From NCBI GenBank assembly GCA_964406135.1, contig CAYOQO010000001.1, positions 34,439 through 98,438 on the forward strand: a DNA stretch of 64,000 nt, given 5' to 3'. The translations under genes were made by a program, and so were the position numbers. Shown piece by piece: positions 9,408 to 63,813 of this stretch. The notes below the pieces were generated by a model. The model was not told where the DNA came from. It ran no database searches and saw only the letters and a program-made list of their open reading frames with translations. The first letter of the stretch is position 1, and each line of letters starts with the position of its first letter. The DNA comes from an uncultured Pseudomonadota bacterium. GTDB taxonomy: Bacteria > Babelota > Babeliae > Babelales > Chromulinivoraceae.

Positions 9408-9432
9408 TAAATTTGTAGAATAATAATTAAAG

Positions 9433-9465: not shown

Positions 9466-9557
9466 TATTTAAAATAAGCGTTTTTTTAAAAACCTTGTTA
9501 TTTTTGTTCCATTTTGAGTAGATTGTAAACTGAAAATAGGGTTTAAAGGGGGTATTT

Positions 9558-10040: not shown

Positions 10041-10063
10041 AAAAATTTTAAAGGGGGGTTGTT

Positions 10064-10441: not shown

Positions 10442-10471
10442 AATATGTTTATTTTTTATAGGGGAGTAGGT

Positions 10472-11881
10472 ATGAAGCAGTGTAAATTTTTCTATGTTGC
10501 AACAATATTATTTTTGCAGGCGGTATATTTATCAGGATCTTTTACGGTAACTGGATTTTCAGAAGCTGAAGTACGAGAAAGAAAACTAGAAGATCTAGCG
10601 CAAATGTTAAAAGAAAGCTTGTCAACTTTTTTAAATAAGCCTGAATTTACCAATGAAATTGTAATTTTGCAGCAAATTCAGGAGTTGAAAAAAGAAAAAT
10701 TATTTGAAGATGCTTTACTAAAAAATTTCAATGGAACAGGTTCATTACTTGAAATATTCATGAATGAACCATCTGTTTTAATGATGTTGCTTTCAAATTT
10801 AGATGGGGATTCAAAAATTTTTGAAATTAAAGATCGAGATAGAAATAATATTTTACATAAACTTGCTTACAAAGCTTTAGAACATCAAGGCTCTTTGGAT
10901 GGAAAGAAAGAGAAATATCTTGAATTGATTGGGATGTTGCAAAGCAATTATGGTTCAAAATATAATAAATTATTAAGTGAAAAAAATTTAGAAGCTATTG
11001 ATCCTTTTTCAATAATGAGTAACAACAAAGAAGCTATTGCATTGACATTGTTCGATAAAATACAGAATGCGTGGAACCTTGATAATAATGTTCATTTGAA
11101 GGCAATAAATGAACTTAAAGCATATTGCGAGTTGCTGGCAAAGAGAAAAATTTTGCAAGATGTTGTTTGGACAAATCTTTCAGGAATTTTATTGTTTGAA
11201 TATTTTAAGCAAGATTCTGAATTGTTGAATATTTTATTTTTTTATATGACAAATTTTAATGCAGTTTTTGAATCTAAAACTGCAAAAAATTGGAATATTT
11301 TGCATGATCTTGTTCATAGGATGCGAATGAGCAATGATCTGATCAAAAAACAAGAATATTTTAATTGTATGAAATTTTTACAAAACGAAAATCCTGTAAA
11401 ATTTGAACAGTTAATGCTTACAGACAATCAAGAAGATATTACGCCTTTGGAAATGATGAGAAAAGAGGAACCATTTTTGGATATGGTTATGGTTAAGAAT
11501 TTCAATCTATCAAAAGCTTCAACGAATCTTTTAAAAGCCATTTTTATGGCAGCATTCAATCGATATTTTAATGGAATTATTAATAATGAGCAGCTTTCTG
11601 CAATTGTACAAAAAATTAAAGATCAATGTTCTTTTGATTTTATTCAAAATGCTTTGAGTGCTCGTATTAATGGAAATATTATTTTTGATCATGCAAATGA
11701 TTCTTTGATATTTAAAGATCTTCTTTTTACGTATTTCCCATCAAATGAAGCACTTGAAAAATTAGGAGGGGTTAATCGTGTAAAAGTTTTATTACAAAAT
11801 AAAATAAATAATAATAGAGTAACAAAGTCTGCATGGATTGCACTAAAGAATGATTTTGATAAAAAATATCTTTCAAGATAA
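10472..11881 (+). CDS. Hypothetical secreted protein with an internal duplication of about 110 aa (degenerate ankyrin-like helical repeats?)
   Basis: GGGGAGTAGG SD before ATG 10472, and a signal peptide. The two halves share ...LL.E.F......L..L........F....R/K..NILH.L..... ..TP/DP. Confidence 0.6.
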   Translation: MKQCKFFYVATILFLQAVYLSGSFTVTGFSEAEVRERKLEDLAQMLKESLSTFLNKPEFTNEIVILQQIQELKKEKLFEDALLKNFNGTGSLLEIFMNEPSVLMMLLSNLDGDSKIFEIKDRDRNNILHKLAYKALEHQGSLDGKKEKYLELIGMLQSNYGSKYNKLLSEKNLEAIDPFSIMSNNKEAIALTLFDKIQNAWNLDNNVHLKAINELKAYCELLAKRKILQDVVWTNLSGILLFEYFKQDSELLNILFFYMTNFNAVFESKTAKNWNILHDLVHRMRMSNDLIKKQEYFNCMKFLQNENPVKFEQLMLTDNQEDITPLEMMRKEEPFLDMVMVKNFNLSKASTNLLKAIFMAAFNRYFNGIINNEQLSAIVQKIKDQCSFDFIQNALSARINGNIIFDHANDSLIFKDLLFTYFPSNEALEKLGGVNRVKVLLQNKINNNRVTKSAWIALKNDFDKKYLSR

Positions 11882-11896
11882 AAATAGTTAATTGGT

Positions 11897-11936
11897 AAAA
11901 AAGATCTTTGTCTAGTCTGGGCAAAGATCTTTTTTC
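11897..11936 (+). terminator. Rho-independent terminator
   Basis: AAAAAAGATCTTTG...CAAAGATCTTTTTT. Confidence 0.75.
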
Positions 11937-12027
11937 TGTTAAACTGTCTGCACGTTTACACAATCTTTTTTTTGTAGCATAGATAGTGGTACCTGTCGTA
12001 CCAATGTAACCATGAAAATTAAATACT

Positions 12028-13431
12028 ATGAATGTTGTTCACGAACAGATTTGGCAAGATTTTTTAAAAATTATTCGCGAAGAGGTTGGGTCTCGCGTTG
12101 TTGAAACGTGGATTAAAGCCGTAACTTTTTCGCGTTACGATGTTGTGAGCCGCGATTTGTATGTTTGCGTTCCTAATTTGTTTGTAAAAAATTGGGTTGA
12201 AATTCATTATAAAGAACTTTTTTGCAGGCATTTGAAACGGTTATTGGGTGTTGAGCAATTAACTATTCATTTTATGATTCAAAATGGTGTTGTTCAATCG
12301 ATGGTGCAGCATGTTGAATCTTCAAAAATTTTGCCCGCCATTCAAGAGCCTGTTCGTAAAAAAAAGAATGAACTTGTAAAAAAAATCGTTCACAGCTCGC
12401 AATTTGCAACTACAAAATTAAATTCAATGTACACCTTTGAAACTTTTGTGGTTGGTGATAATAATCAGTTTGCCTATGCTTCTGCACAAGCTGTTGCTGG
12501 GAAAGTTGGTCGTTTGTACAATCCATTGTTGTTGTATGGTGGCTCGGGACTTGGAAAAACTCATTTATTGCATGCGATTGGCAATCAGATTCTTCAAACA
12601 TATCCTGGAATCAATGTTTTGTATCAAACTGCTGATCGTTTTATTTCTGAATTTATTCATGCTATTCGTTTTGATACGGTAGCAAAATTTCAAGCAACGT
12701 ATAAAGAAGTTGATGTGCTTTTAGTTGATGATATTCAGTTCATGGTTAACAAAGAACAAACGCAAGAAATTTTTTTTCATATTTTTAATAATTTATATGA
12801 ATCAAATAAACAGATTGTTCTTTCATGTGATACATTGCCTCGTTATTTGGGAGGTCTTGCTGATCGATTAAAATCAAGGCTTGAGTGGGGACTGATTGCA
12901 GATGTTCAAATTCCACAACTTGAAACAAAAATTGCAATTTTAAAACGGAAAGCATTTTTACAAGGTGAATCTTTAGAAGAATCAGTAGCTCAATTTATTG
13001 CACAGCAAAATATTTACAGTGTTCGAGAGCTTGAGGGAGCATTAATTCGTGTGCTTGCCTATGCGTCACTGACAGCACAACCAGTAACCATTGATTTAGT
13101 TCGTAAAGTTTTAGGAACTTCATATGAACAAAAATCTGTGGTAAGTCAGGTAGATTTTATAACTATTGTAAATTTAATTAAAAAACATTTGTCCTACGAT
13201 TTGACCATGCTTCGTTCAAAAGATCGTAGTAAAGGTGTCAATCATGCACGGCAGTTGGCAATGTATTTGATGAAGCAATATACGAATAAATCATTGCGAG
13301 AAATTGGAGAGTTTTTAGATCGAAAAGACCATACAACCATCACGCATGCAGTTCAAAAAATTACATCATTGAAAGCATCGGATGAAAAATTAGCATTCTT
13401 TTTAAGAACCTTAGAAGAAGAACTTGATTAA
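12028..13431 (+). CDS. dnaA: Chromosomal replication initiator protein DnaA
   Basis: Walker A GGSGLGKTHLLHAIGN, Walker B LLVDDIQF, sensor/box VII region, and C-terminal DNA-binding helix-turn-helix ...DHTTITHAVQKI. Confidence 0.95.
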   Translation: MNVVHEQIWQDFLKIIREEVGSRVVETWIKAVTFSRYDVVSRDLYVCVPNLFVKNWVEIHYKELFCRHLKRLLGVEQLTIHFMIQNGVVQSMVQHVESSKILPAIQEPVRKKKNELVKKIVHSSQFATTKLNSMYTFETFVVGDNNQFAYASAQAVAGKVGRLYNPLLLYGGSGLGKTHLLHAIGNQILQTYPGINVLYQTADRFISEFIHAIRFDTVAKFQATYKEVDVLLVDDIQFMVNKEQTQEIFFHIFNNLYESNKQIVLSCDTLPRYLGGLADRLKSRLEWGLIADVQIPQLETKIAILKRKAFLQGESLEESVAQFIAQQNIYSVRELEGALIRVLAYASLTAQPVTIDLVRKVLGTSYEQKSVVSQVDFITIVNLIKKHLSYDLTMLRSKDRSKGVNHARQLAMYLMKQYTNKSLREIGEFLDRKDHTTITHAVQKITSLKASDEKLAFFLRTLEEELD

Positions 13432-47173: not shown

Positions 47174-47652
47174 TGATAGTTTTAGGCATTGATCCAAGTT
47201 TTACTGCAACGGGTTATGCCATCATGATACAACAAGGCAACAAACAACAACTGTTACATTTTGGTACTATTGCTTTACCTGCAAATCAAGAATTATCTGC
47301 GCGAATTGGTTTATTTCATGATTTTTTTCAAACTATTATTTTAAAATATCAGGTTACTCGAATTTCTTTAGAAACTCCTTTTTTAGGCAAAAATACACAA
47401 ACTTTTTTAAAACTTGGTTATCTGCGTGGTGTTGTTCATTTGCTTGTGCATCAACATAAACTTGAAATTGTTGAATTTTCGCCACGAGAAGTAAAATTGG
47501 CAGTTACGGGATTTGGTGGAGCAGACAAAGAACAAATTGCGCGCATGATTCAAATGCTTTTTCCTGGACTGGTGCAACAAAAATCGCATGATGTGACTGA
47601 TGCTATTGCAATTTCATTATGTGGATTGTGGCAAAAAAAATTAAAAACTTAA
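47173..47652 (+). CDS. ruvC: Holliday junction resolvase RuvC
   Basis: IVLGIDPSFTATGYAI (catalytic Asp), ...LETPF..., ...HDVTDAIAI. Its ATG overlaps the dnaB TAA. Confidence 0.9.
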   Translation: MIVLGIDPSFTATGYAIMIQQGNKQQLLHFGTIALPANQELSARIGLFHDFFQTIILKYQVTRISLETPFLGKNTQTFLKLGYLRGVVHLLVHQHKLEIVEFSPREVKLAVTGFGGADKEQIARMIQMLFPGLVQQKSHDVTDAIAISLCGLWQKKLKT

Positions 47653-49431
47653 TGATCCTGTTGCACCAACAGAATAAGTATTAATCGTTGCATTACCACC
47701 ACCAAGTGCAAATTCACCAGTTGCAATCAGTGAAAGATTTGGTGTAAATCGATATTCTTTCCAAGTGTATCCAAATTGGCTTGAAAGTTTTGCAGTCATC
47801 GCGCGTTGCGTTGCAGCACCTTGAACGTCAAGTGCTTGATTTAAATCTTGAGGGATACGATTTGAAGCATAGCGAGCGTCTTCAATTCCTGCAGGATATG
47901 GAGGAGTTGGAGCAATGTATGGTGGATTTGGTGGTGAAGGTAAAGGGTTTGTACCTCCAATAACACGAGGTAAAGATTTATTAATTGTTGCAAGTGGTTC
48001 ACAAAGATGAACGCTAATGACTGGATATACGGTAGGATCGCTTAAATAACCTCGTGAATCATCACTGACCTGACGACCTAAAACTGCATATTCATTTAAA
48101 ATTGCAGCATCAACGTGTAGTAAATGCACAGCATCAAGGTTTAAACTTTCACGACCACGGCACCAATATTCAGCGCCAACTGCAATATTCCAATTACGTT
48201 CATGAAAATCAAAAACGGCAGCGGCAGTTCCTTCAATATTAAATCGTGATATGACAGGAAGTGTGGTAATGTTTGCAGCTTGTGTGATGTAAGAAGGAAT
48301 TGCTCCAGTAGGATTGGTAGCTGTCGGCGTTGAAAGGAAATATTTTTGAATTAAAAGATATTTTGATCCTGGTCCGTTTTGTTTTAAATCAAAGGTACGA
48401 TAATTTGGTCGACGACCTGAACGAAGATGCATGACGTCACCTTTCAGCCAAAAATCAAGGCCACGATCTTTGCGAGCATCTTCCCAAATTTTATAATGTC
48501 CAGTAACTTCAGCTCCCACGCCCCAGTGTGCAGCATGACCAAAGACTGGTTCAAGAACGTGACGTCCTGTTGGCATATTGCCAGTCGGTGCTATAAATTT
48601 TGCTCCAAGGCTAAAAAAACCATTGTTGCTGTTATAAAAACTGTATCCAAAAGATGCACAAAGATCTGCAATACGAATTGCTACAAGACGATATGCAGAA
48701 AATCGAGCTTTATCAAGTGCGAATGGTTTATGAGTTCCTGATTGAATGATAATGTTGGTGCTGCTGGATAAAATTCCGGCTTGAAATGCTTCAGTAAGTG
48801 ATTTGTATTGATTTGCAATTGAAGGATATTGCAGCCAAATTTGTTCAGTTTCTAAATCGGCAGGAATATTAGCTGAGGCAACTTTTTCTGAAAGATTTGT
48901 TTGAATCGTCATAGCACCAATTGGAGCTCGGATGGTGCAATAAAATCCACGATTGTGATTATTGTGAGCAGCCTGAAATAATAAATCACAACCAACATGC
49001 ATGATATCAACATCCAAGGAGATGGTTCCTTGACTGCTCATTTCACCCATACCAAATTGGTAAGCATCAAGATCAGATTTTCCATTATTAGTTCCATAGG
49101 TCATCGTGTTAGTTCCAGACCAAAATGGCATTGATGCTATGTTTGCATTACACCCTTGACTGCATTGTCCACCAAAGTTGGTCATGTATTCTAAGGCAAA
49201 TGCAAATGTTTTTTTCCAGCCAAATTCATTGGGTTTATCTGCCATGTACATAGGTTTGATCATGTAAATTTCACGAATCGAAGAAGATGAAAATGCACGC
49301 ATATGAAAAAAGTTGCGGCTGTTTTTGCAATCAACAGGACATTCATTAACGACAGCTAAATCTTCACTAGCAAATAATGTAGTCGATGCTTGTAAGCTTA
49401 ATAATGAATATACAATTAACCATTTTTTCAT
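47641..49431 (-). CDS. Outer-membrane beta-barrel (porin/MOMP-like) protein, paralog A
   Basis: Signal peptide, Cys-containing N-terminus (NECPVDCKN), C-terminal ...GATGSLSF. Shares NRIPQDLN.ALD..GAA, FDLK.NG.GSKY.L.Q and ITTLPV with 56860-58737. Confidence 0.7.
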   Translation of the reverse strand: MKKWLIVYSLLSLQASTTLFASEDLAVVNECPVDCKNSRNFFHMRAFSSSSIREIYMIKPMYMADKPNEFGWKKTFAFALEYMTNFGGQCSQGCNANIASMPFWSGTNTMTYGTNNGKSDLDAYQFGMGEMSSQGTISLDVDIMHVGCDLLFQAAHNNHNRGFYCTIRAPIGAMTIQTNLSEKVASANIPADLETEQIWLQYPSIANQYKSLTEAFQAGILSSSTNIIIQSGTHKPFALDKARFSAYRLVAIRIADLCASFGYSFYNSNNGFFSLGAKFIAPTGNMPTGRHVLEPVFGHAAHWGVGAEVTGHYKIWEDARKDRGLDFWLKGDVMHLRSGRRPNYRTFDLKQNGPGSKYLLIQKYFLSTPTATNPTGAIPSYITQAANITTLPVISRFNIEGTAAAVFDFHERNWNIAVGAEYWCRGRESLNLDAVHLLHVDAAILNEYAVLGRQVSDDSRGYLSDPTVYPVISVHLCEPLATINKSLPRVIGGTNPLPSPPNPPYIAPTPPYPAGIEDARYASNRIPQDLNQALDVQGAATQRAMTAKLSSQFGYTWKEYRFTPNLSLIATGEFALGGGNATINTYSVGATGSLSF

Positions 49432-49654
49432 TTCAATTTCTCCTTCGTACTAAGGAAGATAAAATAAGAAAAAAAAATATGCAAACAAACAATTTTAAAC
49501 GGTTGAAAAGAATTATATATTTTATTATTTTTTTTGTGATGAAAAGCTTTAGGAGCAAAATTGAAAACATTTTCTTGACAACTTGGTCAAATATTTTTTA
49601 TTGTGCAATTGAAAGTGTCCTTATATATCCATCAAATAAAAATAGGAAGTATGT

Positions 49655-51412
49655 ATGACAAAAAATACAAATACTTATGCTTTACAAAAGTTGCTAAAAA
49701 ACAAAAAAAGTTTTTTAGCGCTTTGTTTCTTTGCAGCAACGAATTTAAGCATGAATCTGATAGCAGATGAAGAGTTGCACGAAGAAAAAATAGCAGAACA
49801 TAGAAAAGCAATGGGAGCAGCAACTCCAGGATCGAGTGCTGTAACTGGTGGATCAAATGTTTTGGCATCAAGTTCATCGCATGGTCATAGTTTATATTTT
49901 CCAGGGTACGTTGTGCCTGCAAATAATTTTGGATATGCAGGATCAACAGCAACTTTGGTAGTTCCTATCACAGATTCTCCAGCAAGAACAATTTTAGTAT
50001 CACCTGCAAGTTCTGCACCTGTAGCTGTAACATCTGCAGCTGTGGATAATGCTGGATTTGGTTATAATGTTTTTAATGCGTTAATTTCAGGCACGCAAAA
50101 CGTTGCGGTTGGTTCTACAGCATTGGATGCTGCAACAACTGGTTCAAATAACGTTGCTGCTGGTTATAGTGCTTTAGGTGCTGTCACAACTGGAGCGCAA
50201 AACGTTGCTGTTGGTACAAGTGCTGGTGGCGCAATTTTAACAACATCAGATTCAACAGCGGTTGGATATCAAGCGTTACTTTTAAACACTGGTGCGCAAA
50301 ACACTGCAGTTGGTTCTGGAGCACTTGATGCAAACGTTGCAGGAACTCCAAACGTTGCAGTTGGTTATAATGCACTTGGTGCAAACGTTTCGGGTAACAA
50401 TAACGTTGCCGTTGGTGCTAGTGCTGGTTTAACTTTGCTTACGAATCAAAATACTGTAGTTGGTGCTAGTGCTTTAGCTGCAGCAAGTGGTGCAAATAGT
50501 ACAGCAGTTGGTTATAATGCGTTAAATGCTAATACTGCTGCAAATATGACAGCAGTTGGTTCTGGTGCTTTAGCTGCAAATATTGGTGGAACTCCGAATA
50601 CAGCAGTTGGTTATAATGCTTTAACTACAAATACAACTGGTGCAAATAACGTTGCATTAGGCTCTACAGCTTTAACTTTAAATTTATCAGGTGCTCGTAA
50701 TGCTGCTGTTGGTACAGCTTCATTGGCAACTAACTCAACAGGTGTTGATAATACAGCTGTTGGTTATAATGCTTTGAATGCTTCAACAAGTGCAACAGGA
50801 AACAATTCTGGCTTTGGTAGTGGTGCTGGTGCATTAACTACAGGAGCAAATAATACGTATCTTGGTTTTAGCGCTGGATCTGCAATGACAACTGGTAATA
50901 ATAACATCATGATTGGTTCGGGAACAACATTCCAAGGTGCTGATTCTATTACAAGCTCAAACGTAATTGTTATTCGTGGTAGCACAGAGCAAACAAAAAC
51001 ATATATTGGTGGAATTCGTGGAAGAACAACAGATGCGGCAGATGCGATAGCTGTTTTAGTTTCATCAACAGGACAGTTAGGAACAGTGTCTTCATCAAAA
51101 AGATTTAAAGAAAACATTGTACCAGTTGATCAAGCAACTGCAGAAAAATTAGCAGATCTTAATATTGTTACTTTTACCTACATCAGTGATAAATCTGGTA
51201 GAGTTCAATACGGAGCAATTGCTGAAGAAGTATTTGAAATATTCCCAGAATTAATTGTATATAATAAAGATGGTGAAATTGAGACTATTCAATATCATCA
51301 CTTTGTTCCATTGTTAATTAAATATGCTCAAGTACAAAATGCTGAAATTAAATCACTTAAAGCTGTAGTTGCAGCTTTAATGAAACGAATTGAAGCTTTA
51401 GAAAATAAATAA
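49655..51412 (+). CDS. Secreted repeat fibre protein 1 with a C-terminal tail-fibre-type intramolecular chaperone (peptidase S74-like) module
   Basis: Signal peptide ending NLIA/DEE. Conserved N-module (EEKIAEHRKAMGAATPGSS...YFPGYVVPANNFGYAGSTATLVVPIT). About 20 repeats of N-(T/V)-A-V-G-x-x-A-L-x-x-N-x-x-G. C-terminus SSKRFKENIVP...YGAIAEEV...PELI...IQYHHFVPLLIKY plus a coiled coil. Confidence 0.8.
   Translation: MTKNTNTYALQKLLKNKKSFLALCFFAATNLSMNLIADEELHEEKIAEHRKAMGAATPGSSAVTGGSNVLASSSSHGHSLYFPGYVVPANNFGYAGSTATLVVPITDSPARTILVSPASSAPVAVTSAAVDNAGFGYNVFNALISGTQNVAVGSTALDAATTGSNNVAAGYSALGAVTTGAQNVAVGTSAGGAILTTSDSTAVGYQALLLNTGAQNTAVGSGALDANVAGTPNVAVGYNALGANVSGNNNVAVGASAGLTLLTNQNTVVGASALAAASGANSTAVGYNALNANTAANMTAVGSGALAANIGGTPNTAVGYNALTTNTTGANNVALGSTALTLNLSGARNAAVGTASLATNSTGVDNTAVGYNALNASTSATGNNSGFGSGAGALTTGANNTYLGFSAGSAMTTGNNNIMIGSGTTFQGADSITSSNVIVIRGSTEQTKTYIGGIRGRTTDAADAIAVLVSSTGQLGTVSSSKRFKENIVPVDQATAEKLADLNIVTFTYISDKSGRVQYGAIAEEVFEIFPELIVYNKDGEIETIQYHHFVPLLIKYAQVQNAEIKSLKAVVAALMKRIEALENK
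51092..51409 (+). other. S74-like intramolecular chaperone/autocleavage module of fibre 1
   Basis: S-S-K-R-F-K fits the S-x-x-R-x-K Ser/Lys dyad spacing of endosialidase and tail-fibre C-terminal chaperone domains. About 96% nt identity to 53314-53580. Confidence 0.65.
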
Positions 51413-51432
51413 AATTATTTAATGTAATTTTA

Positions 51433-51472
51433 AAAGAAATGATGTCACTATACGTGGCATCATTTCTTTTTT
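51433..51472 (+). terminator. Rho-independent terminator after fibre 1
   Basis: AAAGAAATGATGTCAC-TATAC-GTGGCATCATTTCTTT then TTT. The T-run overlaps a TTGACA hexamer. Confidence 0.75.
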
Positions 51473-51537
51473 GACAAAGTTATAGAAATAAAGAAATATG
51501 ATTCGTATATAATTTTATCCCAAAAAAAGGAGAATAA

Positions 51538-53655
51538 ATGGGAAAAACTTTACAGTTATTTATTTTTTTAAGCACAAGTTTATTTGTTTCAACAAATCTG
51601 GTAGCAGATGAAAATTTTGATGAAGAAAAAATAGCAGAACATAGAAAAGCGATGGGTGCAGCAACTCCAGGATCAAGTGCTGTAACAGGCGGATCAAATG
51701 TTTTGGCGTCAAGCTCATCTCATGGTCATAGTTTATATTTTCCAGGTTATGTAGTTCCTGCAAATAATTTTGGATATGCAGGATCAACAGCAACTTTAGT
51801 AGTTCCTATTACCAGCTCACCAGCAAGAACAATTTTAGTTTCGCCATCAGCTTCAGCGCCTGCAGCAGTAACATCATCTGCTGTTGACAATACTGGTTAT
51901 GGTTACAATGTTTTTAATGCTTTAACATCAGGAACTCAAAACGTTGCTGTTGGATCAACTTCTTTTGGCCTTGCAACAACTGCAATAGATTGTGTTGCTG
52001 TTGGATATGGTTCTTTGGGCTCAGTGACAACTGGCGGTAATAATACTGCAGTTGGTTCTGGCGCTGGAGGTGCAATTTCAACAACTGCAAATTCAACAGC
52101 TGTTGGATATCAAGCATTGCTTTTAAATACAGGTGCACAAAATACTGCAGTAGGCTCTGGTGCTCTTGATGCAAATACATCAGGAACTCCAAACGTTGCT
52201 GTTGGTTATAATGCGCTTGGTGCAAACGTGACAGGTGGTAATAACGTTGCTGTTGGTGCAAATGCTGCTGCTGCAACAACGACTGGTAATAATACTGCTG
52301 TTGGTTCAAGTGCAATGGTACTCAACACTTCAGGATTTCCAAACGTTGCAGTTGGTTATAATGCTTTAAGCTCAAACTTAACAGGTGGTAATAACGTTGC
52401 TGTTGGGCCAAGTGCTGCAGCTGCGGTATTGACAGGAAGTAACACTGCAGTTGGTTCATCAGCTTTAGCTGCAGCATCAGGTGCAAATGCTGTTGCGGTT
52501 GGTTATCAAGCTTTACTTGTTAATACAGGGGCACAGAATACAGCCGTTGGTTCAAATGCTTTGGATGCAAATACGTCAGGAACTCCAAACACTGCTGTAG
52601 GTTATAATGCTTTAGGAACTAATATTTCTGGAAATAATAACACAGCTGTTGGTGCAAGTGCTGGAGCTCTGTTGTTAACGAGTGGCAATACTGCAGTTGG
52701 AACAAATGCTTTGGCTGCTGTAAGCGGCGCAAACTGTACCGCGGTTGGTTATAATGCTTTGCAATCTAACACTGCCGTTCAAAATACTGCGGTAGGTACT
52801 GGAGCAATTGCAAACGGTGCAAGTGGTTCAGATACAACAGCTATTGGATATAATGCATTACTTGTTAATGCTGCAGCTTTTAATACTGCAATTGGTTCAG
52901 TATGTATGGATGCAAATACTTCAGGTAATCAAAATACATCAATTGGTTATAATTCAATGGGAACAAATATTTCAGGTAACGATTCTGTAGCTGTTGGTGC
53001 AAATTCACTTCGCGATTCAACCGCAAGTCAAAACGTTGCGGTTGGTTCTGGTGCAGGACTTATAACAACTGGTACTAATAATACCTATGTTGGGTATAGT
53101 GCTGGTTCTGCAATGAGTACAGGAAACAATAATGTTATGCTTGGAGCAAGTGCGACTTTCTTGGGTTCTGATTCTGCAACATCATCAAACTTGATTGTGA
53201 TTGGAAATACATCTTCAACAAAAGCCTATATTAGAGGTGTGAGTGGTGTTACAACAGATGCAGCAGCTGTAGCAGTTTTAGTTTCTTCAACAGGACAACT
53301 TGGTACAGTTTCATCATCAAAAAGATTTAAAGAAAATATTGTACCAGTTGATCAAGTAACTGCAGAAAAATTAGCAGATCTTAATATTGTTACTTTTACC
53401 TACATCAGTGATAAATCTGGTAGAGTTCAATACGGAGCAATTGCTGAAGAAGTATTTGAAATATTTCCAGAATTGATTGTGTATAATAAAGATGGTGAAA
53501 TTGAAACTATCCAATATCATCACTTTGTTCCACTTTTAATTAAATATGCTCAAGTTCAAAATGCTGAAATTAAATCACTTAAAGCTCAAGCGCAAACATT
53601 TCAATCAGTGGTTGCAGCTTTAATAAAACGAATTGAAGCTTTAGAAAATAAATAA
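51538..53655 (+). CDS. Secreted repeat fibre protein 2 with an S74-like C-terminal chaperone module
   Basis: Same N-module and C-module as fibre 1, with about 28 N-x-A-V-G repeats. AAAGGAG SD. Confidence 0.8.
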   Translation: MGKTLQLFIFLSTSLFVSTNLVADENFDEEKIAEHRKAMGAATPGSSAVTGGSNVLASSSSHGHSLYFPGYVVPANNFGYAGSTATLVVPITSSPARTILVSPSASAPAAVTSSAVDNTGYGYNVFNALTSGTQNVAVGSTSFGLATTAIDCVAVGYGSLGSVTTGGNNTAVGSGAGGAISTTANSTAVGYQALLLNTGAQNTAVGSGALDANTSGTPNVAVGYNALGANVTGGNNVAVGANAAAATTTGNNTAVGSSAMVLNTSGFPNVAVGYNALSSNLTGGNNVAVGPSAAAAVLTGSNTAVGSSALAAASGANAVAVGYQALLVNTGAQNTAVGSNALDANTSGTPNTAVGYNALGTNISGNNNTAVGASAGALLLTSGNTAVGTNALAAVSGANCTAVGYNALQSNTAVQNTAVGTGAIANGASGSDTTAIGYNALLVNAAAFNTAIGSVCMDANTSGNQNTSIGYNSMGTNISGNDSVAVGANSLRDSTASQNVAVGSGAGLITTGTNNTYVGYSAGSAMSTGNNNVMLGASATFLGSDSATSSNLIVIGNTSSTKAYIRGVSGVTTDAAAVAVLVSSTGQLGTVSSSKRFKENIVPVDQVTAEKLADLNIVTFTYISDKSGRVQYGAIAEEVFEIFPELIVYNKDGEIETIQYHHFVPLLIKYAQVQNAEIKSLKAQAQTFQSVVAALIKRIEALENK
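53314..53652 (+). other. S74-like intramolecular chaperone/autocleavage module of fibre 2
   Basis: SSKRFKENIVPVDQVTAEKLADLNIVTFTYISDKSGRVQYGAIAEEVFEIFPELIVYNKDGEIETIQYHHFVPLLIKY... with a 7-aa insertion (QAQTFQS) in the terminal coiled coil. Confidence 0.65.
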
Positions 53656-53676
53656 AATTATTTAATGTAATTTTAA

Positions 53677-53713
53677 AAAGAAAAGGTGTCAAAAAAGACA
53701 CCTTTTCTTTTTT
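53677..53713 (+). terminator. Rho-independent terminator after fibre 2
   Basis: AAAGAAAAGGTGTC-AAAAAA-GACACCTTTTCTTT then TTT, followed by TTGACA as after fibre 1. Confidence 0.75.
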
Positions 53714-53779
53714 GACAAAGTTTTAGAAATGAAGAAATATTGATTTATATTATTTTATAACCCTAAAAAAGGAGTTTTT

Positions 53780-56700
53780 ATGGGGCAAATCAAAAAAATT
53801 TTTATTATTGTTTTTCTTGCCGTAACAAATTTAGGATTTACGAATCTGAGAGCAGATCAAAATCTTGATGATGAAAAAATAGCAGAACATAGAAAAGCAA
53901 TGGGTACGGCAACTCCATTTTCAAGCTCTATGACCGGTGGATCAAATATTTTAGCGTCAAGCGCATCTAATGGTCATGGATTTATCTTACCAGGGTACGT
54001 TGTGCCTGCAAATAATTTTGGATATGCAGGATCAACAGCAACTTTGGTAGTTCCTATCACAGATTCTCCAGCAAGAACAATTTTAGTATCACCTGCAAGT
54101 TCTGCACCTGCAGCTGTAACATCATCAGCTGCGGATAATGCTGGATTTGGTTATAACGCATTTAATGCGTTAACTTCAGGTATTCAAAACGTTGCGGTTG
54201 GTTCAACAGCATTGGATGCTGCAACAACTGGATCAAATAACGTTGCTGTTGGTTACAGTGCTTTAGGTGCAGTAACTACTGGTGCTCAAAACGTTGGTGT
54301 TGGTACAAGTGCTGGTGGCGCAATTACGACAGCTTCAAATTCAACAGCAGTCGGATATAATGCATTGCTTGTCAATACTGGATCTCAAAACACAGCAGTT
54401 GGTTCAACAGCATTAGATGCAAACGTTGGAGGAATTCAAAATATTGCTGTTGGTTATAATTCTTTAGGTGCAAATATTTCTGGAAATCAAAATGTTGCAA
54501 TTGGTGTTGGTGCTGGATCTACAAGTACCACAGCTTCAAGTGTTACAGCAATTGGAGCATCAACCTTATCATTAAACACAAGTGGTCAAAATACTGCAGT
54601 TGGTGCAATTGCTTTAGCTTCAAACGCTGGAGGGACACCAAACACAGCTGTTGGGTATAATGCCTTAGGTAATAATTCCACAGGAAATCATAACACGGCA
54701 GTTGGTGCAAATGCTGGAAATTTAGTATTAACATCAAATAATACGGTTGTTGGTTCAAGTGCTTTAGCTGCAGCATCGGGTGCAGATTCTACAGCTGTTG
54801 GATATAGTGCATTATTGAATAACACTGCAGCTAATAATACAGCAGTTGGTTCTGGTGCTCTTGATGCAAACATTGGCTGAACTCCAAACACGGCGGTTGG
54901 TAAAGATGCACTTGGAGCAAATACAACAGGGAATCAACATACTGCTGTTGGATATCAATCTTTAGCAACCAATACTGGTGGAAATGATTGTACAGCTATT
55001 GGATTTCAAGCATTAAATTTAAGTACAGCATCAAATAATACTGCAGTTGGTTCAAGTGCATTGACCAATAATAGTTCAGGAACTCAAAATACTGCAGTGG
55101 GTAAAACAGCATTGGCTGCAGTGACAACAACCAATGATAGTACAGCTGTTGGATATAATGCTTTAGTGTTAAATACTGCTGCACAAAGTACTGCAGTTGG
55201 CTCACAAGCTTTAGCTGCAAATACGAGTGGTGCTGGAAATACAGCTGTTGGATTTCAAACATTAAATTTAAATCAAACTGGAGGTGCAAATACAGCTGTT
55301 GGTATTCAAGCTTTATTAAACAATACTGGCAATAATAACACAGCTTGTGGAGCTTCAGCGCTTCTTGGAAATACCTCTGCTGCAAATAATACCGCAGTTG
55401 GTAAAGCTGCAATGCAATCAAATTCAACAGGCGCTGATTGTACTGCAATTGGGTATAATGCTTTAAATGTAAGTACTGCATCTTTTAATACTGCAGTTGG
55501 ATCAATTGCATTAGATGCAAATACAACAGGAAATCAGAATGTATCTGTTGGATATAATTCAATGGGAACAAATATTTCTGGTAATGATTGTGTTGCGGTT
55601 GGTGCAAACTCACTTCGTGATTCAACAGCGAGCCAAAACGTAGCAATTGGTTCTGGTGCAGGACTTGTTACAACAGGTACAAATAATACATATCTTGGAT
55701 ATGCTGCTGGTACTGGCGCAACGACAGGTTCAAATAATGTAATTATTGGTGCTTCATCTGTACCATCTTCGACTACAATTTCTAATCAAACGGTTCTTGG
55801 AAATTCATCAACAACGACAGCCTATTTATTTGGTATTCCTGGTGCAATTGCATCATCAAATTTAGTTACGACGACTGGTACTTCAACAGGACAGTTAGGA
55901 ACTATTCCTTCAACAGCAAACAGTGGTATTCCATTAATTGCACAAGGAAATGGAGTAAGTCCTGTTTATGGAACAGCGCTGGTTGCTGGTGGTGGAACAG
56001 GAGTGACATCATTTGGACAAAACAATTCATTAATCTTGAGTGGTACATCAGGTACTGGAGCATTGCAACAAGTGACAGGTGGAACATCAAATACTGTTTT
56101 AGCTGCTGCAGGTGCTGCAACAGTTCCAACATTTAAAACACTTTCTGCTAACATGCAAATATTTACGGCAAATGGAACATACACACCAACAGCAGGGATG
56201 GTTTATTGCGATGTTGAATGTTTGGGTGCTGGTGGTGGTGCAGGTGGTTGCAGTGCTGTAAACTTTTCTGTCTCAGGAGGTGCTGGATCTGGTGCTTACA
56301 GCAGAAAATGTTTCTCTGCTGCAACGATAGGTGCATCACAAACTATTGTGATTGGTACTGGAGGATCAGGTGGTATTGGTGCTGCTGATGGTACTGATGG
56401 CGGAGCTACAACCTTTGGTGGAACATTATTGACTGCTGCTGGTGGTGGTCGTTCGTTAGCAAATTCATCAATTGGAGGAGCTATTGCTGCAGCTGCAGTT
56501 ATTGCAAATGCTATTTGTATTCCTGGAAGACATGGTGGTCCATCATTAACTCCTACAATTGCTGCAATTGGAACATCGGGAGCAGGTGCTGATAGTCCTT
56601 ATGGTACTGGTGGTTATGCACAATTATTTTTCATTGCAACGCCAACATCGGCCTTTGATGGAGTTGCAGCTTCAGGATATGGAGCTGGTGGTGGTGGAGC

Positions 56701-56785
56701 TTCAGTAGGAACTGGTGGTCTTGTGAAAAATGGCGGTTCAGGAACTTCAGGACTTGTCATTATTACAGAATACATTCTTTCGTAA
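53780..56785 (+). pseudogene. Fibre gene 3: a single 1002-codon frame interrupted by one in-frame TGA (54878-54880). The distal domain differs (Gly-rich, no S74 module)
   Basis: ORF-track pieces 53780-54880 and 55061-56785 are in the same frame, and no other stop lies between 54881 and 55060. The downstream piece has no SD or ATG (TTG only). The TGA sits where the paralog has GGA (ANIG-G-TPNTAVG). Confidence 0.75.
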
Positions 56786-56802
56786 AAAGTTTTTATTACG
56801 TA

Positions 56803-56840
56803 AAAAGAGAGCTGCAGAATTTCTGCAGCTCTCTTTTTTT
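56803..56840. terminator. Strong bidirectional terminator between fibre 3 and OMP paralog B
   Basis: AAAAGAGAGCTGCAG-AATTT-CTGCAGCTCTCTTTT then TTT. Confidence 0.85.
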
Positions 56841-56859: not shown

Positions 56860-58737
56860 TTAAAAGTTGAGTGATCCTTGAAGACCAGCGCTCCACATTT
56901 GAACAGCATTGTTTGTATTGTTTGTAAACTCTGCACTGCCAATGAATGATAAGTTTGGAGTGTAGCGGCAATCATTCCATGTGTAACCAAACTGTGCAAA
57001 TACTTTACCAGTGAAAGCTTTTGCAGCAGCAGCACCACAGATATCCAATGCTTCATTTAAATCTTGCGGGATACGATTTGTTGAAACACGACCGTCAACA
57101 ACTCCTGTTGGCCATGCGCCTGACGCTGGGAAACCAAATGGAGCTGTAGTGCCTGTCAATTGAACTGCATTTTGTGATTTATTGATTTTTGCTGCAGGTT
57201 CACATAAAGGAATTACAGAAGGAACTGCTGTATAAGTTGAGCTTGCAAATGTAGATATTGTTGCGTCTGGGTTAGAGCCACCAGCTTGACGACCAACAAC
57301 TGCAAAATTATTTAAATTTTCTTTGTGTTGATCAACACATGAACACATGTCGATGCTTACAGTTTCTTTTGTTCTACCCCAGAATTCACCAGCAACTGCC
57401 AAATTCCAGTTATTGTGATGATAATCAAACATTAATGATGCTGAACCTTCAGCTGCAAATTTTGAAAATACTGGAAGTGTTGTAATATTAATTGCTTGAG
57501 TTAAAGATCCTGCAACAAAACCTGTTGTATTCGCAGTAGTTGCGACTGAAGCAGCTTCTTGATGATAGTGCTGTAAAAGAATATATTTTGAACCAAGACC
57601 GTTTGCTTTTAAGTCAAATGAACGCATGCTTGGAGTTCTGCCTGGAAGAAGGTGTAAAACTTCACCTTGGAACCAAACATCTAAATATTTAGATTTAGCG
57701 TCATTTTCCCAAGCTTTGTAATGACCAACAACGTCAGCACCAACGCCCCAAGCGCCGCCACGACCAAATATTGGCTCAAGAGCATAACGTGCTGTTGGAA
57801 CGTTGCCTGTTGGGCATGTTGTTTTAAAACCAAGACCAAAGAAACCTTTTTCATTTGCAAATACGTTATAACCAAGAACAAATGAAAGATCTGCTAAACG
57901 AATTTCAGTTTGTTTGCATGTTGAAATTCTACCATAGTGAAGTTCTGTTTGGTATGGTTGACGCATAGTATCAAGTGTACCATTGCTTCCAACGCCACCA
58001 GCAATTGAAGCGCCAACGTTTTCTGCGCGATTTGCTAAGCTTGGATAGTTTGTGACATAATTAATATTTGCAGGTCCAGTTGTGACTTGTGAAAAATAAT
58101 TTACATCTCTTCTTTCAGAAGTATCTGTCATTTGAGGATCGATACTGATTGCGCCAATTGGAGCATGAACTTTAAAATACATTCCGTGTTCATCTTTTTT
58201 ATGAACAAAATACAGCATAAAATCTGTACCAACTTGAGTAATTTTTGGATTGATAGTTAATGTTCCACTAATTACATTTGGATCATAATTTAAACCTGTA
58301 GGTGTACCTGTTGTTGTTGGAATAGTTCCGCCAGCAGCATTACCACATCCAAAGTTCCACATATCGATATCTGCAGTACCACCGTTGTTACCAACAGTCA
58401 TTGCATTTGTTCCTGCAGCACCCCAAGAGAACATTGAACCTAGATTTTTGCAGCTGTTACACTTTGCACCAAAATTTTGCATATATTGAGTTGCAAATGA
58501 AAAAGTTCCATTCCATTCATCGCGATGACTTTCAGTTTGGAATAAGTTTTTTTCTAGAGTGATTTCACGAGAAGCATCCGATGAGAAGGCGCGAGGGAAC
58601 CAAGTATTTTTACTTTGAGAACACGGTTGATTTGAACAAACTGCTGAGCAGTCAATACCTGAAACAGAACAGGCATTAACAATTTGACCTATCGTTAAGA
58701 TTGCGGCTACTTTGAGCCATAAAGTATTTTTTTTCAC
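56860..58737 (-). CDS. Outer-membrane beta-barrel (porin/MOMP-like) protein, paralog B
   Basis: GTG start behind an AAAGGAG SD (VKKNTLWLKVAAILTIGQIVNA signal peptide). Cys-rich N-terminus CSVSGIDCSAVCSNQPCSQ. C-terminal ...LQGSLNF. The ORF-track start at 58899 lacks an SD. Confidence 0.7.
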   Translation of the reverse strand: MKKNTLWLKVAAILTIGQIVNACSVSGIDCSAVCSNQPCSQSKNTWFPRAFSSDASREITLEKNLFQTESHRDEWNGTFSFATQYMQNFGAKCNSCKNLGSMFSWGAAGTNAMTVGNNGGTADIDMWNFGCGNAAGGTIPTTTGTPTGLNYDPNVISGTLTINPKITQVGTDFMLYFVHKKDEHGMYFKVHAPIGAISIDPQMTDTSERRDVNYFSQVTTGPANINYVTNYPSLANRAENVGASIAGGVGSNGTLDTMRQPYQTELHYGRISTCKQTEIRLADLSFVLGYNVFANEKGFFGLGFKTTCPTGNVPTARYALEPIFGRGGAWGVGADVVGHYKAWENDAKSKYLDVWFQGEVLHLLPGRTPSMRSFDLKANGLGSKYILLQHYHQEAASVATTANTTGFVAGSLTQAINITTLPVFSKFAAEGSASLMFDYHHNNWNLAVAGEFWGRTKETVSIDMCSCVDQHKENLNNFAVVGRQAGGSNPDATISTFASSTYTAVPSVIPLCEPAAKINKSQNAVQLTGTTAPFGFPASGAWPTGVVDGRVSTNRIPQDLNEALDICGAAAAKAFTGKVFAQFGYTWNDCRYTPNLSFIGSAEFTNNTNNAVQMWSAGLQGSLNF

Positions 58738-59035
58738 AAGGACTCCTTTTTTTAAAATACCAACATAACAGAATGACACAGCAAATCTAAAATAATAAAA
58801 AAAATAAAGCAATGGTTTCAAATCCTTCAGCCCGATTTTGGCTTCAAAAAGATAATTTTGCTTGTTGACGAAAAACTGTACTTTCCAAGAAATTATCAAT
58901 TTTTGGGGCTGATTTTTTTACCCGCCCTGAATCATCGTAACTCGCATAAGCCCTATTATGTATCCGTAACCAATAATTTTTCAAAAAACCTTAAAGGCTG
59001 CTACAGATCTTGATTTTCAAGATTTTTGAAACTTT

Positions 59036-61611: not shown

Positions 61612-62679
61612 TCAGGATTTTAGTGATACCACGTCTGGATCGGCCTTGCCAAGCAAATCTTGAAGACTAGAATCAAAAAAAGGCGCTGTAATAATAATTT
61701 GATTTTGACATGAAATTAAAAAATTTATTAAATTTTGTAGTCTTGTTTTGTCAAAATCTGAGATAAAATCATCAATTAAAAGGAGCGGTTTTTCTTGACC
61801 TTTCGGCTGAATCAGGACTAAAGACAGTTTGCACAGCAGCGAAATCAACTTTTGTTGTCCTCGAGATGCAAAAATTTGAGCTTTTTGGCCTCTAATTTGA
61901 ATGATTAAATCATCTAAATGGGCACCAAAAAGCGACCTTTTGAGCATTCGTTCCTGCCCTATCAAGCTTTCAACAAATCCTGTTACAAGAGTCGCTTTAG
62001 GCTCATACAAAAGAGAAATTTCATAAATATCATCAAAAAACTGATGAATCAATGAATTCACCATATTTTCTATCTGAATCATTATATTTTGACGAAAAGA
62101 TTGAATTTTTGAAGTGACTTCAATTAATTTTTGAGTCCAAATATCAAATTCCGAAAAATCAAACGAATGATAATTTCGCTCTAAAAAAGCATTGCGTTGT
62201 TGCAAAATTTGCTTAAATTCACGATACAACGATAGAGCTTCGGGATGAGCCAGCAGAACTGCTTGGTCAATAAAAGCTCGCCTACCAGCAGGATACCCCT
62301 TAACAAGATCAATATCATCTTCTGTAAGTGTCACAACTTGAAATATTGAAAGTATTTCTTTGTACGATGTTACTGGTTTTTGATTAAATTTTATCGATTT
62401 TCGTTTTCCCGCATAGCCAACTTGAATGGCATGTTGTTCAGTCAATTGCTCTGTTCTAAAAACCCCTTTTAAAAAAAATGCATCGGTTCCTGCATGCATT
62501 AAATCAGATACCACATGAGAACGAAACGACTTAAAATAAGAAAGATAATAAATAGCTTCAATGATTGAAGTTTTCCCTACTCCATTATCTCCCGTAATTA
62601 AAGTTACCGGCGCAGAAAATTGTAATTTTTTATCGGCAAAACAACGAAACTGTTGTAGTTGCAATTCTTCTAAAAACAA
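61612..62679 (-). CDS. recF: DNA replication and repair protein RecF
   Basis: FRCF......F...VTLITGDNGVGKTSIIEAIYYLS Walker A; C-terminal LLLIDDFISDFD Walker B/signature. dnaN-recF synteny. Confidence 0.9.
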   Translation of the reverse strand: MFLEELQLQQFRCFADKKLQFSAPVTLITGDNGVGKTSIIEAIYYLSYFKSFRSHVVSDLMHAGTDAFFLKGVFRTEQLTEQHAIQVGYAGKRKSIKFNQKPVTSYKEILSIFQVVTLTEDDIDLVKGYPAGRRAFIDQAVLLAHPEALSLYREFKQILQQRNAFLERNYHSFDFSEFDIWTQKLIEVTSKIQSFRQNIMIQIENMVNSLIHQFFDDIYEISLLYEPKATLVTGFVESLIGQERMLKRSLFGAHLDDLIIQIRGQKAQIFASRGQQKLISLLCKLSLVLIQPKGQEKPLLLIDDFISDFDKTRLQNLINFLISCQNQIIITAPFFDSSLQDLLGKADPDVVSLKS

Positions 62680-62691: not shown

Positions 62692-63813
62692 TTACATATT
62701 GTTCGCAGAAACTGGCATCACCAAATACATTAAATGATACATATCACCTTCTGCTTTAAAAATAATTGGACGAGCATTGTTTTTTAAAAAAAAGGTTAAT
62801 TGATCACTATCAAATGATTGAAGACCTTGCAAAAGATACGGTGAATAAAATCTCATTTCTAATTTTTCAGCATCAAAATTACCAATTGATAATGTTTCTT
62901 CCAAATTTCCAATATCATTGTTTTTCATAAAAACTTTTAATTGGTTTTTATTAAACGTAAAATTAGTTGCCAAAAACTGTCCTGAAAGCAAGCATGATGA
63001 TCTTCGTAAAGTTTTGACAAAATCAGATTTGCTCAAAGTTGCAGGAATAAAAGAATCATGCTGTAAAATTGATTCATATTTTGGAAATTCATCTGCTAAA
63101 AGCCGTGTAAAAAAATTAAAATGATCACCGGAAAATACCAATTGTTGCTCGCAAGTTCCTAAAAAAATCATTGTTGCTGCAGAATTTTCAAGTATTTTTT
63201 TTAATTCAAAAATTGCACGGCGTGGAAGCAACCATTTTTTTTCTTTTTCAAGTACATAGCGATCAGATGTTACTTGAGCTAAGCAATGACCATCAGTTGA
63301 TGTTAATTTAAATTCTTTAGCCGAAATTTCTAAAAATAAGCCATTAAGCGATGGTGTTGCATTGTTTTGAGGAATTAAAAAGGAAACTTTACCAAGCATG
63401 TTAGATAAAAATTGAGCATCTATTTGCATTAAATTTTCAATGCGTTCAGGCAGTGGTGGAAATTCTTCAGCACTTTTAATATTGAATGAAACATTAATAT
63501 GTTGTTGTGATTTTAAAGTAATTTGACTGTCATCAACGATACATTCAATATCACCATCCATTTCTTTGACAATATCAAAAATCTTTTTTCCAGGAACTAA
63601 AAATTGTGCAAACTCTGTAGAACTTGTTGTGAGCAAGCAACTATACTGCAAACTAATTTCCAAGTCTGTTGCTTTCAAGATTAATTCTTTGTTTGAAATT
63701 TGAAACAAAATGCATGACGTTGAAGGCATTGTTGTTTTTTTTGTACAAATTGGTTGCATGAAAAATAATGTTGTCAATAAATCTTTTTGACTCACCACAA
63801 ATGAATAACTCAT
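62692..63813 (-). CDS. dnaN: DNA polymerase III beta sliding clamp
   Basis: 373 aa with a three-domain clamp pattern (..LLTTL..........P.....ILF......L.L.ATDLEIS..., ...LPRRAI.EL.K.L..., C-terminal ...YLVMPV). Lies immediately upstream of recF. Confidence 0.85.
   Translation of the reverse strand: MSYSFVVSQKDLLTTLFFMQPICTKKTTMPSTSCILFQISNKELILKATDLEISLQYSCLLTTSSTEFAQFLVPGKKIFDIVKEMDGDIECIVDDSQITLKSQQHINVSFNIKSAEEFPPLPERIENLMQIDAQFLSNMLGKVSFLIPQNNATPSLNGLFLEISAKEFKLTSTDGHCLAQVTSDRYVLEKEKKWLLPRRAIFELKKILENSAATMIFLGTCEQQLVFSGDHFNFFTRLLADEFPKYESILQHDSFIPATLSKSDFVKTLRRSSCLLSGQFLATNFTFNKNQLKVFMKNNDIGNLEETLSIGNFDAEKLEMRFYSPYLLQGLQSFDSDQLTFFLKNNARPIIFKAEGDMYHLMYLVMPVSANNM

Follow-up and report, generated by a model that had tools for sequence, protein, structure and literature searches.

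Recombination among three tandem fibre genes of a Chromulinivoraceae bacterium: a probable history of unequal crossing-over and short-tract gene conversion

How do three adjacent genes come to be almost identical in some patches and strongly diverged in the patches beside them? The question is raised by the genes F1, F2, and F3, which lie in tandem within a 64,000-nucleotide stretch of DNA (the window) from an uncultured Chromulinivoraceae bacterium, an obligate intracellular parasite of protists (NCBI GenBank assembly GCA_964406135.1, contig CAYOQO010000001.1). This family belongs to the Dependentiae (TM6), which are widespread obligate intracellular bacteria of protists. An earlier note, made from the letters of the window, had treated the three genes as fibre genes and had proposed that ongoing gene conversion or cassette exchange produced their mosaic similarity. 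We find clear statistical evidence of recombination among the tandem copies; it is of the ordinary kind and is not the work of a dedicated variation machine. The reading that we consider likely is that the genes form a three-gene tandem family of secreted, phage-like trimeric surface fibres that was shaped by unequal crossing-over and short-tract gene conversion. The genomes compared are that of the window and two related assemblies, L001 and L017.

Patches of near-identity within F1, F2, and F3

The genes, their parts, and the segments that carry the argument are as follows.

F1: 49655-51412, + strand, an open reading frame of 585 amino acids and the positional orthologue of L001 gene A. Its parts are a signal peptide (about amino acids 1-37), an N-terminal module (amino acids 38-145), a repeat shaft, a tip, and an S74 chaperone.
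F2: 51538-53655, + strand, an open reading frame of 705 amino acids; a chimera.
F3: 53780-56785, + strand, 1001 codons with one in-frame TGA; the positional orthologue of L001 gene B.
5' patch in which F1 groups with F2: 49783-49905 (= 51624-51746), + strand. Synonymous divergence (dS) is 0.375 for F1-F2 versus 0.70 for F1-F3, and the informative sites are mostly of the F1+F2 type.
F1/F3 gene-conversion tract: 49901-50230 (= 53990-54319), + strand, with an exact core at 49901-50021 and maximum chi-square breakpoints at 49906 and 50230.
F1 3' module: 51053-51435 (near-identical to F2 53275-53678), + strand, comprising S74, the stop codon, and the first 23 nt of the intergenic region; 94-96% identity.

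Self-comparison of the window aligns the three 5' regions without gaps from about 49770 onward (F1 + 1841 = F2; F1 + 4089 = F3), and it also reveals a block of 1.2 kb that starts in the 3' end of F1, spans the intergenic region, and extends into F2; this block recurs one gene downstream. The 5' modules had been described as near-identical in patches, and this is what the measurements give. Across 49783-49911, F1 and F2 are 92.2% identical versus 79.1% for F1 and F3, and the peptide AMGAATPGSSAVTGGSNVLASSSSHGHSLYFPGYVV is present in both F1 and F2. In the adjoining segment, F3 54001-54130 matches F1 49912-50041 with only three mismatches (97.7% identity), compared to 83.1% for F2 in the same columns, and the longest exact F1/F3 match extends over 121 nt (49901-50021 = 53990-54110). 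A near-identity of about 130 nt between F3 and F1, with divergence just upstream, had been noted; the F1 coordinates given for it were about 8 nt off register. In this tract the F2 peptide is nearly the same, yet its gene has 22 nucleotide differences in 130 nt.

The 3' ends of F1 and F2 form a second region of high similarity. Their chaperone modules, which had been estimated at about 96% identity, measure 96.3% (F1 51092-51360 versus F2 53314-53582) and share an exact run of 108 nt (51136-51243 = 53358-53465). The F2 module carries a 21-nt insertion at 53587-53607. F1/F2 identity jumps from 57-77% to 83-100% at approximately 51050. The conservation of the downstream noncoding blocks is likewise real, since the intergenic motifs occur exactly twice in the 64 kb, at 51412/53655 and 51471/53712. 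Between the conserved ends, the central repeats differ as had been claimed, with 10, 17, and 21 occurrences of the N.x[AVI]G motif in F1, F2, and F3, respectively, in proteins of 585, 705, and 1001 amino acids.

The conflict between neighbouring segments is statistically significant. There are 189 variable sites among the three genes between 49770 and 50430. Within 49906-50230, 89% of the two-way informative sites group F1 with F3, compared to 28% outside these limits, where the other 72% group F1 with F2. A two-breakpoint maximum chi-square test gives a value of 57 (permutation p = 0.003), and there is a run of 19 consecutive sites at which F1 equals F3 (p < 5e-5). A breakpoint test of this kind had been suggested as a check on the earlier note, and its outcome is that identity is not uniform along the genes. 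Synonymous divergence varies in the same piecewise manner:

F1-F3 dS: 0.70 at 49772-49903, 0.15 at 49904-50230, and 0.66 at 50231-50428.
F1-F2 dS: 0.375 at 49772-49903, 0.84 at 49904-50230, 0.54 at 50231-50428, 1.28 in the tip, and 0.22 in S74.

For the same gene pair, synonymous divergence thus changes five- to eight-fold between adjacent segments. Nonsynonymous divergence (dN) is low in the N-terminal module and in S74 (0.013-0.06). The S74 module has a dS of 0.22 between F1 and F2 and of 0.62 when compared with L001. At the other extreme is the presumed distal tip, the approximately 80 codons that precede the S74 cleavage site (50813-51052 in F1 and 53041-53274 in F2), where F1 and F2 have a dS of 1.28 and a dN of 0.25. 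The tip is the most diverged alignable part of the proteins, with 55% amino acid identity between F1 and L001 gene A, and because it adjoins the most conserved module it gives a sharp recombination boundary at about 51050. Since similarity is non-uniform, groupings conflict from segment to segment, and dS is heterogeneous, exchange must have happened several times between the copies, and the most recent events left the exact tracts of 121 and 108 nt.

Relatives, the origin of F2, and strain-level variation

L001 is a Candidatus Chromulinivoraceae metagenome-assembled genome (Babeliales, Dependentiae/TM6) that is syntenic with the window gene for gene. DnaB is 95% identical at the amino acid level between the two, and the flanking genes have a species-level dS of 0.65-0.78. 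The corresponding slot in L001 holds only two fibre genes, A (549 amino acids, with S74) and B (with a glycine-rich end). F1 and gene A share an upstream spacer (80-83% identical), a long signal peptide, and S74, and F3 has 76-81% nucleotide identity to gene B from 55456 onward. By sliding-window best matches, F2 begins B-type and continues in a shaft (52223-53078) that runs colinearly with gene B of L001. A divergent tip (53079-53266) comes next, and the gene closes with an S74 module of A type (53267-53655); over the final 400 nt, identity to F1 is 94-99%. F2 is consequently shown to be a B-5'/A-3' chimera, as expected if it originated by unequal crossing-over between misaligned A and B genes. 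Its junction lies between about 53078 and about 53258 and is not placeable more finely, since the tip is the most diverged part in every comparison.

The noncoding DNA agrees with this origin. The one intergenic region between A and B in L001 aligns with both of those in the window, including the terminator, the TTGACA box after the T-run, and AAGGAG. The two terminator stems had been said to differ internally yet keep pairing; they do so, with predicted energies of -21.8 and -21.2 kcal/mol, and in each of them a compensated pair of changes separates the stem from that of L001. Unequal crossing-over is the first explanation for why the 3' module and intergenic block are duplicated, and conversion was superimposed on it later. 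The relative ages of the events can be read from dS. In the neck that F2 (52852-53076) shares with F3 (55457-55681), dS is 0.62 between the two, compared to 1.11 between F2 and L001 gene B and 0.94 between F3 and L001 gene B, so the F2 duplication postdates the species split. At a dS of 0.22, the S74 modules of F1 and F2 postdate this duplication, and the 121-nt and 108-nt exact cores are more recent again. Several conversions must have followed the crossover because one event cannot give segment dS values from 0.15 to 1.28.

The head modules give a further line of evidence. Their dS is 0.24 between F1 and F3, compared to 0.95 between F1 and the gene A head of the sister species (P0002, which is gene A on contig L017, another assembly of the L001 species). 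Genes A and B predate the species split, yet the F1 and F3 heads are closer than orthologues, so the heads have been homogenised within the genome. RecA-dependent gene conversion is known to homogenise bacterial paralogues, whether tandem or dispersed, for example tufA/tufB and surface-protein families. The F1-F3 array resembles such cases of concerted evolution in its short exact tracts, conflicting segment trees, heterogeneous dS, and paralogues that are closer than orthologues, and it differs from them in no point of principle.

Variation between strains of the sister species bears on the earlier note's suggestion that population data be examined for structural heterogeneity, which is indeed found. 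On either side of a variable stretch of gene A, L001 and L017 show 100% identity (about 650 nt upstream, 700 nt downstream), and their difference is confined to about 800 nt within this gene (L001 10116-10900 versus L017 650-1440). Here they are 32-70% identical over 10166-10560 and 84-94% identical up to about 10900. The L017 head is of the window type (71-85% nucleotide identity, dS 0.76-0.95, about the species distance), whereas the L001 gene A head is a very different allele with 37-45% amino acid identity and a dN of 0.6-0.77. In nature, homologous recombination between strains has exchanged the 5' third of gene A. The idea that L017 is an assembly chimera carrying a hidden L001 gene B head was rejected, since gene B after the gap is only 70-83% identical to L017, which also departs from gene A at 87-95% identity over a further 400 nt. 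The gap in question is a run of 100 N (11926-12024) that lies exactly over the N-terminal module of L001 gene B. Both of its edges are identical to gene A, and the 55 identical nucleotides at the right edge are a typical k-mer overlap, which suggests that the A and B heads are near-identical and could not be resolved by the assembler.

We propose the following history. The ancestral locus would have held two genes, A with S74 and B with a glycine-rich end, a state that L001 retains. Unequal crossing-over between misaligned A and B shafts would have converted this pair into A, a B-5'/A-3' chimera (F2), and B, and the same crossover would have duplicated the A-B intergenic region (terminator, TTGACA box, and ribosome-binding site) together with the S74 module. 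Short-tract gene conversion between the copies could then have overwritten patches at different times. Between F1 and F2 these would be the 5' patch and the S74 module, and the latest would be the tract of about 330 nt shared by F1 and F3. The expected outcome would be N-terminal modules that are more alike within one genome than orthologues are. Between strains, homologous recombination also exchanges the N-terminal region of gene A for a divergent allele. All of these exchanges are probably the work of general homologous recombination of the RecA type.

Several observations weigh against this history. The F2 tip (53079-53266) is old relative to F1 (dS 1.28) and to F3, and the segment ages cannot all be explained by one unequal crossover. 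The gap covers the head of L001 gene B, which makes it an inference, not an observation, that the A and B heads of that genome were homogenised. The word "ongoing" rests on the exact tracts and on the contrast between L001 and L017. Finally, all of the sequences may be short-read metagenome assemblies, in which paralogues and strain variants can be mis-threaded.

Other explanations and comparable systems

A simple recent tandem duplication with no later exchange would ascribe the conserved ends to stronger purifying selection on the N-terminal module and chaperone, which are in fact the parts most conserved at the protein level (dN 0.013-0.06). Purifying selection on the protein is excluded as the cause because synonymous sites are near-identical only in patches. 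Such selection cannot equalise synonymous sites, and it leaves unexplained the exact runs of 121 and 108 nt, the dS values of 0.15 and 0.22 beside 0.66-1.28 in adjacent segments of the same pair, and the conflicting groupings of neighbouring segments (p = 0.003 and p < 5e-5). It is also at odds with the nucleotide differences with which F2 encodes nearly the same peptide in the F1/F3 tract. We judge duplication alone to be very improbable. Programmed variation, by donor cassettes or site-specific switching as in pilE/pilS, vls, msp2, and shufflons, is the other mechanism that conserved flanks around a variable interior might call to mind; F3, with its premature stop, could be a partly silent donor, and head replacement between strains is seen. 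Yet each copy has a ribosome-binding site, a signal peptide, and a following terminator (a promoter-like site is found only before F1 and F3), and there is no further head or S74 copy in the 64 kb. Inverted repeats are AT-rich, reach at most 72-95% over 19-37 nt, and are never significant, and Pfam finds no recombinase or reverse transcriptase among the neighbours scanned. Moreover, the tracts differ in age, unlike the product of one active donor-acceptor pair. Of the two processes named in the earlier note, conversion is thus borne out by dS and the site tests, but programmed cassettes, which would entail a silent copy, a recombinase, or an inverted repeat, are highly unlikely. An invertible promoter was also rejected because no inverted repeats support it. 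Homopolymer runs that would be relevant to slipped-strand phase variation are limited to A7-A9 and T6-T8 in AT-rich spacers.

Mosaicism could also be created after the fact if a short-read assembler threaded paralogue or strain reads through shared k-mers. The run of 100 N that falls exactly on the head of gene B, the identity of 55 nt at its right edge to gene A, and the approximately 2.8x coverage of L017 are what this account would predict for the relatives. In the window itself, F2 is distinct from F1 and F3 from end to end with a dS of 0.2-1.3, far above strain variation, F1 and F3 retain the domain order of their L001 orthologues, and the two intergenic regions differ from each other so that both are needed. 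A mis-join, furthermore, swaps downstream sequence and cannot make a bounded identical patch that is flanked by divergence. We regard an assembly artefact as quite unlikely. A prophage or phage-remnant tail-fibre module, with mosaicism from phage-phage recombination, would account for the repeats, S74, and glycine-rich domains that match PHROG tail-fibre, tail-spike, and virion-structural families and, weakly, the T5-like and S16 fibres of the PDB. This origin is extremely improbable in view of the N-terminal Sec-type signal peptides on all three proteins, the neighbouring genes (DnaB, RuvC, L9, RecF, DnaN, and two outer-membrane-protein-like genes, with none from phages), synteny of the locus in a species at a dS of about 0.7, and an N-terminal module that is without a relative in viral contigs and has a single weak one in 1.84 billion representatives. 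A phage framing is accordingly replaced: F1-F3 lie on the chromosome of a Chromulinivoraceae (Dependentiae/TM6) bacterium and encode secreted proteins.

Unequal crossing-over followed by conversion, which remains our preferred history, would have operated on the genes of proteins whose closest functional counterpart is the mosaic adhesive trimer (MAT) fibres of Bdellovibrio bacteriovorus. These comprise S74 and NS74 subfamilies (Caulton et al. 2024, PMC10769870). In each, a conserved N-terminal domain (about 130 amino acids, thought to reside at the cell surface) lies between the signal peptide and a trimeric beta-helical shaft, and among the 21 genes of strain HD100 there are 13 members that end in an autoproteolytic S74 and 8 that end in another tip (PMC10769870). 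MAT fibres serve in prey recognition, and "tip swapping" has been suggested as a route to their diversity (PMC10769870). The window proteins have the same order of parts, both types of end, and several paralogues in a bacterium that must recognize and enter another cell. They differ in that the host is a protist rather than a bacterium, the genes are three in one tandem array rather than 21, and the S74 motif is SSKRFK rather than SDxxxK. Their N-terminal module is about 108 amino acids long, has no detectable sequence relation outside its own lineage, so that homology to the MAT N-domain is unproven, and differs from strain to strain, in contrast to the MAT N-domain, whose structure is described as invariable. 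The MAT fibre is the best functional analogue, and we class the present family as MAT-like rather than as a proven member.

Other proteins share individual features. Phage fibres and tailspikes (K1F endosialidase 3GW6, GA-1 neck appendage 3GUD, and T5 L-shaped), as well as the eukaryotic MyRF ICA (7DC3), have in common with F1 and F2 an S74 domain, by both Pfam and fold, with its Ser/Lys dyad. Phage fibres also consist of mosaic modules with recombination boundaries at domain junctions, but F1-F3 are chromosomal, Sec-exported, and without a virion context. The repeats resemble the YadA-like head repeats of trimeric autotransporter adhesins (YadA/Hia), and JGI names many homologues in this way. 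None of the three proteins matches a YadA-type C-terminal beta-barrel anchor in Pfam at E <= 0.01. Tandem arrays are common in the large repeat and S74 family, as seen from uncultured bacteria that have five S74 genes in L002 (OY969616.1, a 1.48-Mb chromosome, 1-12310) and three in L003 (9241-12559).

The literature that was searched contains no description of host recognition or attachment in the Dependentiae (TM6), and the locus supplies concrete candidate host-recognition fibres for this group. Duplication, conversion between paralogues, and allele replacement are together the usual signature of host-interface genes. A more specific proposal, which we offer as an improbable speculation, is that the fibres are the host-attachment organelles of the Chromulinivoraceae and that the N-terminal module is their specificity or matching determinant and more than a passive anchor, swapped as a unit between strains and spread by conversion to every fibre gene. 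All fibres of one cell would then share one "head type", perhaps because a shared head is needed to match a partner that evolves along with it, for instance a host receptor or the outer-membrane-protein-like proteins on either side of the array. In that case the premature stop of F3 would be reversible, with F1 or F2 as possible donors for its repair by conversion. The recombination itself is textbook, and the value of the locus lies in showing which genes to study and in a worked example of crossover followed by conversion with datable segments.

Protein architecture and surroundings of the array

F1 and F2 each end in a match to PF13884 (Peptidase_S74, the endosialidase-type intramolecular chaperone; E = 3.3e-13 and 50.2 bits for F1, E = 1.3e-12 and 48.3 bits for F2, with a gathering cut-off of 22). 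The catalytic serine (S480 of F1, codon 51092-51094) and lysine (K485) are invariant in 18 homologues. The motif reads SSKRFK instead of SDxxxK, so that the dyad is kept and the Asp is replaced by Ser, and it aligns with the SD..K of PDB entry 6F45. An AlphaFold monomer model of F1 370-585 has predicted local distance difference test (pLDDT) values of 80-96 over the S74 part and 46-79 over the shaft part. Foldseek matches the S74 model to 7DC3 (MyRF ICA, E = 1.7e-4), 3GW6 (K1F, E = 6e-3), and 3GUD (GA-1, E = 5.5e-2) with probabilities of 0.92-1.0. In the predicted structure, the C-terminal domain of F1 is shown to have the intramolecular chaperone fold along with the Ser/Lys dyad. By analogy to characterised relatives, S74 would drive trimer folding and then cut itself off at Ser480. 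A PDB sequence search returns weak matches to S74 and to T5-like and S16 fibres, plus one spurious antibody match, and NCBIfam has no match for the fibre proteins.

The chaperone affects how the constant ends should be interpreted. They had been taken as the architecture of recombination-driven surface variation, and the recombination is upheld, but the constancy at the 3' end traces to the crossover origin of F2 and to a folding module. S74 constancy reflects this folding role rather than a flank for surface variation because characterised relatives cleave the domain off after folding. The surface location of the fibres, their trimer formation, and a role in host attachment are all probable by the same analogy.

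F3 had been counted as a third fibre gene. It shares the 5' mosaic, but its C-terminus is different, with no PF13884 match, and the gene has an in-frame TGA. This end matches PF21722 (Gly_rich_2) at 31.3 bits (cut-off 24.3) and constitutes the following domain:

F3 glycine-rich C-terminal domain: approximately 56171-56767, + strand, no S74.

Both C-terminal types, S74 in F1 and F2 and glycine-rich in F3, are therefore present in the array. The repeat shaft and both of these C-terminal domains match PHROG tail-fibre, tail-spike, and virion-structural families. The shaft is built from "N-x-AVG" repeats of 16-17 amino acids. Combined with S74 it defines a very large family of more than 6,800 matches, many of them named "tail fiber domain-containing protein" or "trimeric autotransporter adhesin".

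The TGA of F3 at 54878-54880 splits the gene into open reading frames 53780-54880 and 55061-56785, which share one frame. The paralogous repeats all read GGA ACT CCA AAC at this point, and F3 reads GGC TGA ACT CCA AAC, a single G-to-T change. The 634 codons downstream are intact. Recoding of TGA was rejected, since this codon ends 5 of the 30 long open reading frames and long open reading frames are intact under genetic code table 11. A very recent nonsense mutation, a polymorphism among strains, or an error in sequencing could each account for the stop, and conversion from F1 or F2 could repair it.

At the opposite end of the proteins, Sec-type signal peptides are evident by inspection in all three, with a K-rich n-region, a hydrophobic core, and an NL.A|D site. 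The N-terminal module of about 108 amino acids that follows has 80-89% amino acid identity among the copies. An exhaustive profile search with this module against 1.84 billion cluster representatives gives one weak match, P0121 (E = 9.6e-5). This protein (L098 171-1514, on a 1.9-kb Logan contig from SRR27639468) is a 447-amino-acid S74 fibre without an obvious signal peptide. Scanning JGI metagenomes with N-terminal patterns finds no relatives, and a JGI scan with an S74 pattern finds only distant ones of at most 49% identity and no further Chromulinivoraceae loci. In viral contigs, matches are confined to the repeat region, with none to the N-terminal module. An AlphaFold prediction of the head module from a four-sequence alignment (pLDDT 33) was discarded as uninformative.

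Each of the three genes comes with a ribosome-binding site and a signal peptide of its own and is succeeded by a terminator hairpin. These and the flanking features are:

Promoter-like site TTGACA/TATTGT before F1: 49575-49604, from a promoter scan.
Intrinsic terminator of F1: 51432-51470, + strand, -21.8 kcal/mol, z = -9.2, followed by T6.
TTGACA box and AAGGAG ribosome-binding site (51527-51532) before F2: 51471-51537, + strand, with homologous sequence at 53712-53779 and between genes A and B of L001.
Intrinsic terminator of F2: 53675-53712, + strand, -21.2 kcal/mol, z = -6.1, with a T-run after the hairpin.
Promoter-like site before F3, in the F2-F3 intergenic region: 53712-53741, from a promoter scan.
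Hairpin terminator between F3 and the convergent outer-membrane-protein-like gene: 56802-56838, + strand, -28.4 kcal/mol, z = -7.8.
Left flanking outer-membrane-protein-like gene: 47641-49431, - strand, 596 amino acids, in the same position in L001.
Right flanking outer-membrane-protein-like gene: 56860-58899, - strand, 679 amino acids, syntenic in L001.

The scan calls no promoter-like site in the copy upstream of F2, which has a conserved TTGACA box and a weak -10 element. The two flanking genes are paralogues of each other (37% identity, E = 8e-140) and are without a Pfam, NCBIfam, or PHROG match; the left one is 89% identical in amino acids to its L001 orthologue. Both proteins (600-680 amino acids) have a signal-like N-terminus and a C-terminal Phe, which is typical of outer-membrane beta-barrels. 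This pair could be the major outer-membrane proteins of the lineage or partners of the fibres. The neighbours of the array are housekeeping genes (L9, DnaB, RuvC, RecF, DnaN, and IleRS), and Pfam and PHROG scans find no phage genes among them. Gene orientation flips where the GC skew changes sign, at about 58-60 kb, and this shift may merely reflect the direction of transcription. Given the skew change and the presence of dnaN (62692-63813) and recF (61612-62679) on the minus strand, the locus may be near the replication origin region.

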